Shown here one piece after another: positions 50,758-51,057 of a DNA stretch of 64,000 nt. The position numbers and the translations under genes are program-made. The stretch's first letter is position 1. Each line of letters begins with the position of its first letter. This DNA is from Carcharhinus longimanus (Eukaryota), in the NCBI GenBank assembly GCA_030264375.1, contig JASCQW010000099.1:18306877-18370876 (forward strand). The letters run 5' to 3'. Below the pieces are notes generated by a model, which saw nothing but the letters and a program-made list of their open reading frames with translations, did not search any database and was not told the DNA's origin.

Positions 50758-51057
50758 ATTTTTTGTTTGTTTTTATTCCAATTCAATCCAATCAAGTCCA
50801 ATTCAGAGTCTCAGCAAGTTGAGACGTTCCTGATCCAAGCTGACAAAGACAGGGCTATCACCTCCTGTCTTGGGCTTGATCTACATGATCCAAGCTGGTT
50901 GGAGCAGGCACAGTTCCTCCTCCAAGGCTTGATGTCATTTTCATCTTAGCCAAAAGGCTGAGATGCTGCTTTTAAAAATTGCTTCAAGTGAAGCTGAAAT
51001 GTAACCTAATGACTTCAATCAAGCATAGCATGTCAATACTACACTTGATCTTGGCCA
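50758..51057 (-). mobile_element. Poly(A)-tailed retroposed element containing two U2 snRNA 5' fragments
   Basis: Reverse complement of 51036-51057 (tggccaagatcaagtgtagtat) matches U2 nt 18-39 at 21/22. Reverse complement of 50943-50966 (gcatctcagccttttggctaagat) matches U2 nt 4-27 at 22/24. AATAAA and an A-rich tail lie at 50758-50777. Confidence 0.7.

Follow-up and report, generated by a model that had tools for sequence, protein, structure and literature searches.

A SINEU-like candidate retroposon with an apparently duplicated U2 snRNA head in an ABHD12 intron of the shark Carcharhinus longimanus

On the minus strand of the window (the whole stretch of Carcharhinus longimanus DNA analysed here, 64 kb), exons resembling those of ABHD12 were located near 59.0k, 57.1k, 43.0k and 25.2k. 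The exon at 43.0k was 95% identical to ABHD12 of the bamboo shark Chiloscyllium, 93% to that of Stegostoma, 88% to those of rays and 85% to that of Callorhinchus. Between these exons lay an element of approximately 315 nt (50759-51073, minus strand), in sense orientation inside a shark ABHD12 intron, which was the location proposed in an earlier note on this DNA. Its parts are listed in Table 1.

Two hairpins were observed upstream of ABHD12 exons: one with a stem of ~35 bp, just upstream of the exon at 43.0k (43540-43645, -46.7 kcal/mol on the minus strand), and a near-perfect 18-bp hairpin with an 8-nt loop, ~500 nt upstream of another exon (25783-25826). The former was the sole background window of 88 with a fold z below -4, was present as a single copy in the window and reached only sub-threshold scores with miRNA families; it may be a small element made of inverted repeats or a pre-miRNA-like sequence. 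A younger and abundant SINE family, presumably of the HE1/V-SINE type, was present at 51900-52180 and at about ten similar loci, and one tRNA-like head of this family was called by ARAGORN (37134-37214).

Table 1. Features of the U2-headed element and its 3' flank, in the order of the minus-strand transcript (positions in the window).
Feature	Positions	Strand	Description
Leader of head 1	51060..51073	-	Likely 5' part of the duplicated head; paired by repeat search (spacing 101) with the leader of head 2 (50972-50959), 12/14 identical
U2 piece 1	51036..51057	-	U2 nt 18-39, 21/22 identical, T22>C; includes the GTAGTA branch-point recognition sequence
Anti-U2 arm	51008..51031	-	Repeats piece 1 in inverted orientation; masks the branch-point sequence in the predicted fold
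Rest of spacer	50967..51007	-	5-bp hairpin 50994-50981, T5 run 50978-50974, leader of head 2
U2 piece 2	50943..50966	-	U2 nt 4-27 (U2 5' stem-loop), 22/24 identical, T6>A and G11>A
Body hairpin unit A	50884..50938	-	~55 nt
Body hairpin unit B	50829..50883	-	Tandem duplicate of unit A
Terminal 6-bp stem-loop	50808..50825	-	Fold prediction
Degenerate 5/10-nt tandem repeat	50777..50810	-	Before the polyadenylation signal; TRF period 10, 3.2 copies, score 45
AATAAA and A-rich run	50759..50777	-	AATAAA 50777-50772; 14 A of 16 in 50774-50759
Decayed 3' tail of an older SINE-like family	50680..50756	-	Outside the element, directly after the A-run

Two fragments of U2 snRNA, both in the same orientation, were present in the element, and the two assignments made in the earlier note, U2 nt 18-39 with GTAGTA and U2 nt 4-27, were borne out at the positions of Table 1. 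U2 was aligned by eye to the human line in S1 Fig of PMC4640811 and to the mouse text in bioRxiv 2021.08.01.454689 (the human and mouse texts were identical across the compared part), and the identities refer to mammalian, not shark, U2. Piece 1 ended at U2 nt 38/39, although this end was slightly ambiguous (nt 38-39, or nt 42 with a 1-nt gap). The number of chance matches to any U2 position expected in 64 kb, on both strands, was 1.3e-4 for piece 1 and 2.1e-4 for piece 2, and that for a second U2 piece at most 200 nt from the first was 3e-7 (window base frequencies); the U2 matches of both pieces are far beyond chance. In the Rfam scan (451 nt), positions 50963-50944 were aligned to positions 7-26 of the 192 of the U2 model (RF00004) with 17.8 bits (E 0.22), far below the gathering score of 46, indicating that the element is neither a U2 gene nor a full U2 pseudogene. 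Piece 1 was not called as U2 by Rfam. No gathering-level Rfam match was found in the whole 64-kb window, and none at E<=1 in 48000-54000.

The U2-derived head was apparently duplicated. The identity between the two leaders took in bases upstream of the U2 homology and an A that both carry at U2 position 6, and after the U2 part a common 6-mer was present in both heads; the head thus looks duplicated, and the 5' end of the element, previously placed at 51057, is likely to lie at or above 51073. The score of the head repeat was reached in 1 of 2000 shuffles, much of it being due to the common U2 origin of the heads. Upstream of the element, a sequence of nine bases (51087-51079, minus strand, 22 nt from piece 1) coincided with the conserved ACAGAGA-box region of U6. 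The chance expectation of this match varied with the search space, between 0.02 and 0.96, and it was not counted as evidence. Just 5' of the element, positions 51130-51340 were GC- and CpG-rich and contained an inverted repeat (51256-51293); this region, which had no clear second copy in the window, is probably another repeat.

The spacer between the U2 pieces had been described as about 70 nt of unrelated sequence. Its length (69 nt, 51035-50967) was as described; it was not unrelated, as 51031-51008 repeated piece 1 in inverted orientation. Over its first 28 nt the spacer is predicted to pair back onto piece 1, with the branch-point recognition sequence inside the stem of this first hairpin: 15 uninterrupted pairs (4 of them G-U), a 3x3 loop and 6 further pairs (1 G-U). 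Predicted pair probabilities in the 15-bp stem were 0.78-1.0, and the hairpin was strand-specific (-22.2 kcal/mol on the minus strand vs. -8.7 on the plus strand). All five non-Watson-Crick pairs of its stems were G-U and none A-C, an outcome expected once in 32 with random transitions (hand calculation). The U2 arm of the 15-bp core was unchanged, and all four differences were located on the anti-U2 arm. Stems of at least 15 bp were present at two other non-microsatellite sites in the window, so this structure is uncommon but not unique. Derivation of the anti-U2 arm from the flanking SINE was rejected, there being no profile hit. In piece 2, T6>A, G11>A and the next base (50942) each create a Watson-Crick pair from a mismatch or wobble; the probability for the two internal changes was ~0.01 (hand calculation), and the third base was picked post hoc.

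Downstream of piece 2, the earlier note had reported about 165 nt of unique sequence. The length was confirmed (165 nt, 50942-50778), and the sequence was internally repeated, a tandem hairpin duplicate being present inside. The score of the alignment of units A and B was reached by none of 2000 shuffles. Of 13 pairs shared by both units, three were changed on both sides, two on one side and none was broken, a covariation that is based on two paralogous units of a single copy. The minus-strand RNA was predicted to fold into five main helices, with a z of -3.55 with respect to shuffles; for 50790-51065, the minus strand gave a z of -4.46 and the plus strand one of -2.72, and only one of 88 length-matched background windows went to -4 or lower. 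The pairing kept in the anti-U2 arm, piece 2 and units A and B may be, as we infer from these predicted folds, the mark of selection on the RNA during replication, unlike what is expected of a dead one-off fragment.

Other likenesses were observed in the body. Six to eight bases identical to those of U2 nt 24-31 opened the first hairpin and both body units (51050-51044, 50933-50927 and 50881-50874, minus strand) and their complement closed each of them, the middles being unalignable; the body itself may descend from U2 fold-backs. Unit A as an internally deleted U2 3' half, as in SINEU-3, was rejected: there were two resemblances of 10-11 nt, the first of which, to a human primer, was absent from mouse U2, and they were considered chance-level. 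By-eye likenesses to U1 and U4 were dropped, SECIS, HDV-ribozyme and C/D-guide readings, judged by eye, did not fit, and the sub-threshold Rfam hits (mir-26, Afu_191 and others) were judged generic hairpin or antisense matches.

The 3' end was as the earlier note had it, with AATAAA followed by an A-rich tail. Inside the element there was a T5 run at 50978 and a T4 run at 50955, and no tRNA head was detected in it by ARAGORN; these two features argue against transcription by Pol III and in favour of Pol II transcription from outside.

The tail of the older SINE-like family that follows the A-run belongs to a family with ~8 other copies in the window, which we take to be of the SacSINE1/DeuSINE type. 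Positions 50756-50680 scored 2.9 bits against a profile of six other tails, a value reached by none of 274 background windows (271 of which had no hit at all); the profile of the whole family missed this sequence, and confidence in the tail assignment is moderate. The A-run of the older SINE overlaps the tail of the element, and the case for a poly(A) tail is weaker for it. In the profile search, no upstream half of the older SINE was detected 5' of the element, and a clean insertion into that SINE is consequently unproven. The 3' flank was not U2 from nt 39 onward. The target-site duplication that the earlier note had proposed to look for was not found adjoining the tail in a direct-repeat search of the flanks; the best direct repeat (51064-51054 and 50718-50708, 10/11) lay 40 nt past the tail, within the older SINE-like tail, and was rejected.

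An assembly gap of 100 N (50572-50671) was located 87 nt from the element. Pieces of the older SINE-like family lay tail to tail across this gap (50380-50566 on the plus strand and 50680-50756 on the minus strand), and such facing pieces may account for the assembly break. The majority sequence of the copies of the older SINE (e.g. those at 5560-6030, 20500-20880, 62525-62890, 45400-45760 and 56500-56830) was, by eye, similar to U2 nt 29-44 on the antisense strand (14/16), a few bases from the junction between element and tail. The orientation of this likeness is opposite to that of Keno and Utopia insertion, an unexplained lead on target preference.

Searches of the 64 kb with blastn, with nhmmer and with a covariance model built on the hairpin unit detected no second copy of the element (next best E 0.4). 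A 12/14 match to piece 1 at 32474 was rejected as chance level; it lay within a reverse-transcriptase-like remnant, presumably CR1. None of 53 open frames (at least 55 aa, 46-56 kb) matched reverse transcriptase or endonuclease families, and there was no remnant of a partner LINE nearby. Neither a 76-aa frame, searched against two protein sets, nor a 44-aa frame gave any hit, a 37-aa frame gave no usable one, and blastn against plasmids and phages returned no match. All six hits of a scan of prokaryotic contigs were rejected as unrelated bacterial Cys-rich coding repeats with a 12-mer alone in common; Cys-rich tandem peptide repeats, unrelated to the element, were observed around position 1500 in planctomycete-labelled and other bacterial assemblies (L001-L006). 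The protein, plasmid, phage and prokaryotic sets contain no shark genomic DNA, and these searches, made without a positive control, therefore have no bearing on copy number. A U2-derived SINE of sharks was not found in the literature searched, most subscription papers and Repbase Reports being beyond its reach; the family may already be catalogued in Repbase or Dfam.

On balance, we lean towards the element being one genomic copy of a multi-copy retroposon family. It is likely a short, non-autonomous, Pol II-transcribed retroposon with a duplicated U2 head, a predicted RNA of five hairpins and an A-rich tail, likened to SINEU by description, and by analogy it was likely moved in trans, via its A-tail, by a LINE of the Tx1/L1 type. 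The earlier note had suggested a U2-derived SINE or a relative of U2-targeting LINEs. This suggestion is supported in part. The anatomy fits a non-autonomous U2 retroposon shorter than 500 nt, with tandem U2 heads, internal T-runs, AATAAA followed by an A-run and a predicted RNA structure that shows compensatory changes. Insertion into a U2 target in the manner of Keno or Utopia is not supported, the 3' flank being other than U2 from nt 39.

SINEU elements have been reported in crocodilians only (Kojima 2015, PMC4494074), with recurrent addition of U2 heads, partial duplication, poly(A), internal oligo-T and Tx1 partners; in old copies target-site duplications are hard to see and truncations are normal, and some Tx1 families bear U2 heads themselves (PMC4494074). 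The SINEU features observed in the shark element were a U2-derived 5' region, a non-coding sequence of ~315 nt, under 500 nt, and internal oligo-T. The closest likeness in arrangement was to SINEU-1, which is also shorter than 500 nt and has more than one U2-derived 5' piece gained by addition or partial duplication, a unique body, an A-tail and internal oligo-T, but whose published description, in the available part of PMC4494074, includes neither a fold-back anti-U2 arm nor a duplicated hairpin body. SINEU-3, as described there, likewise combines two parts of U2 with a unique 3' region; its two parts, however, are the colinear remains of an internally deleted U2 (32 bp from the 5' end and 83 bp from the middle), whereas the shark pieces overlap and both lie within the first 39 nt of U2. 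The tailless U2 retropseudogenes presented in PMC5322556 are likewise 3'-truncated U2 5' fragments, but single ones with no body or tail, in contrast to the two fragments, structured body and tail seen here. Compared by description, the shark element may have an origin independent of crocodilian SINEU.

How such an element may have been generated can be outlined as follows. A master copy would have resided in a U2 gene, between nt 38 and 39, or its head would have been gained by template switching to U2 RNA; the stop of piece 1 at nt 38/39, the site used by Keno and Utopia, suggests the former, with co-transcription. The master copy would have been read by Pol II from the flanking (U2) promoter. 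The two heads may have arisen through a second round of head capture or by partial duplication, as in SINEU-1 subfamilies. The fold-back arm, by hiding the branch-point sequence, might keep the chimeric RNA from a U2-like role in splicing, stabilise it, or both. A loose analogue of this arm is found in R2, whose transcripts pair with the 28S leader. The ORF2 protein of a LINE would then start target-primed reverse transcription on the A-tail, with an A-rich stretch of the older SINE as the target, leaving a copy in the ABHD12 intron which is probably inert. Taken as a whole, with co-transcription from the U2 gene included, this chain of events is speculative and rather unlikely.

The alternative with the most weight, although we hold it to be improbable, is a one-off chimeric retrocopy, in which the body would be the 3' UTR of a 5'-truncated Tx1/L1 LINE, the U2 parts would come from template switching and the inverted arm from folding back of the 5' junction. 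The 3' end described above is L1-like in that L1-type elements have AATAAA with A's immediately behind it; the lack of a target-site duplication and of a second copy in the window also agrees with a single event. Template-switch chimeras between snRNA and LINE sequences are known (PMC4494074). Against it, every change in piece 2, like every one in the anti-U2 arm, is in favour of pairing on the RNA strand, which a single dead insertion would not be expected to gather, and the non-U2 bases common to both heads fit duplication within a lineage better than two independent switches.

Next comes a relic of Keno or Utopia in a U2 gene or U2-like site, with piece 1 as the target's 5' flank and a truncated or internally deleted LINE making up the remainder, which we regard as quite unlikely. 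Tx1 elements have a poly(A)-type 3' end, as the shark element seems to have. Keno (Tx1 clade) and the U2-headed Tx1-Mar families (e.g. Tx1-11_Crp) share with it the junction at U2 nt 38/39 and, in some Tx1 LINEs, the U2 heads; the shark element, set against Keno by description, is nevertheless non-coding and has no U2 nt 39 or later downstream. Utopia (NeSL clade) uses the same U2 site, and its reptile families show insertions of weak specificity outside U2 genes (PMC4640811); the 3' arm of unit B also resembled the 3' end of some alligator Utopia copies shown there over ~12 nt and a few flanking bases, a by-eye likeness without statistics. Utopia copies, however, end soon after AATAAA, with a few further bases and no A-run in S1 Fig of PMC4640811, and are followed by a U2 nt 39-like motif; the reptile families make 20-bp target-site duplications. 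None of these features was seen here, and Table 1 of the same paper includes no cartilaginous fish. The 3' flanks of Keno and Utopia start at U2 nt 39, according to PMC4640811 and PMC6136364. Of the features of such insertions, a 5' flank of U2 up to nt 38 was present, and a 3' flank of U2 from nt 39 and an open reading frame for reverse transcriptase with APE or RLE were absent; the element is therefore not a Keno or Utopia insertion. The shared site at which piece 1 ends favours this explanation, but the older SINE-like tail as the 3' flank and the absence of an ORF2 remnant oppose it, and piece 2 is left unexplained.

A DNA-level fragment of a U2-derived satellite or of a U2 array spacer, copied by repair or recombination, is very unlikely. 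Tandem heads, tandem body units and the proximity of the assembly gap are in its favour, and a U2-derived satellite exists in Ciona. The 3' AATAAA and A-run and the RNA-strand-specific pairing speak against it, as does the absence of a long-period array in 50600-51500 by TRF.

A functional intron-encoded RNA, such as a scaRNA-like guide for U2 or a miRNA precursor, is highly improbable too, although the element lies in sense within the intron, is strongly structured, carries an arm complementary to U2 nt 25-39 and gave a weak mir-26 score in unit B (16.2 bits, E 0.16). The antisense arm is predicted to be paired in cis with the U2 copy of the element itself, a poly(A) signal and an A-rich tail are present, no known guide RNA or miRNA family was matched at the Rfam threshold (no snoRNA or scaRNA family came near it) and the mir-26 score was far under the gathering score of 57. 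Typical pre-miRNAs have a loop larger than the 4 nt present here, which also counts against the miRNA reading. Chance matches or an assembly artefact, for which the sub-threshold Rfam score and the nearby gap could be invoked, are largely refuted by a joint chance of ~1e-11 and by the coherent internal structure.

The preferred reading of the element as one copy of a U2-headed retroposon family has consequences that depend on copy number and transcription. If single-copy, it would be merely an unusual chimeric retrocopy of little consequence. A bolder and distinctly tentative version, to which we give little credence at present, is a shark U2-headed family independent of crocodilian SINEU, born at the Keno/Utopia site, with a borrowed U2 promoter and with the anti-U2 arm as a built-in silencer of the captured U2. 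The mode of transcription of SINEU was left open in PMC4494074; Pol II transcription from outside was proposed, and template switching to U2 RNA was favoured by Kojima. Reading from the U2 promoter, if true, would answer how snRNA-headed SINEs are transcribed and gain new heads, and a head which ends at the Keno/Utopia site and carries its own antisense mask would be a direct test of head capture by co-transcription with a U2 gene. A U2-headed family in sharks would point either to repeated origins of the SINEU design or to an age much greater than has been supposed.
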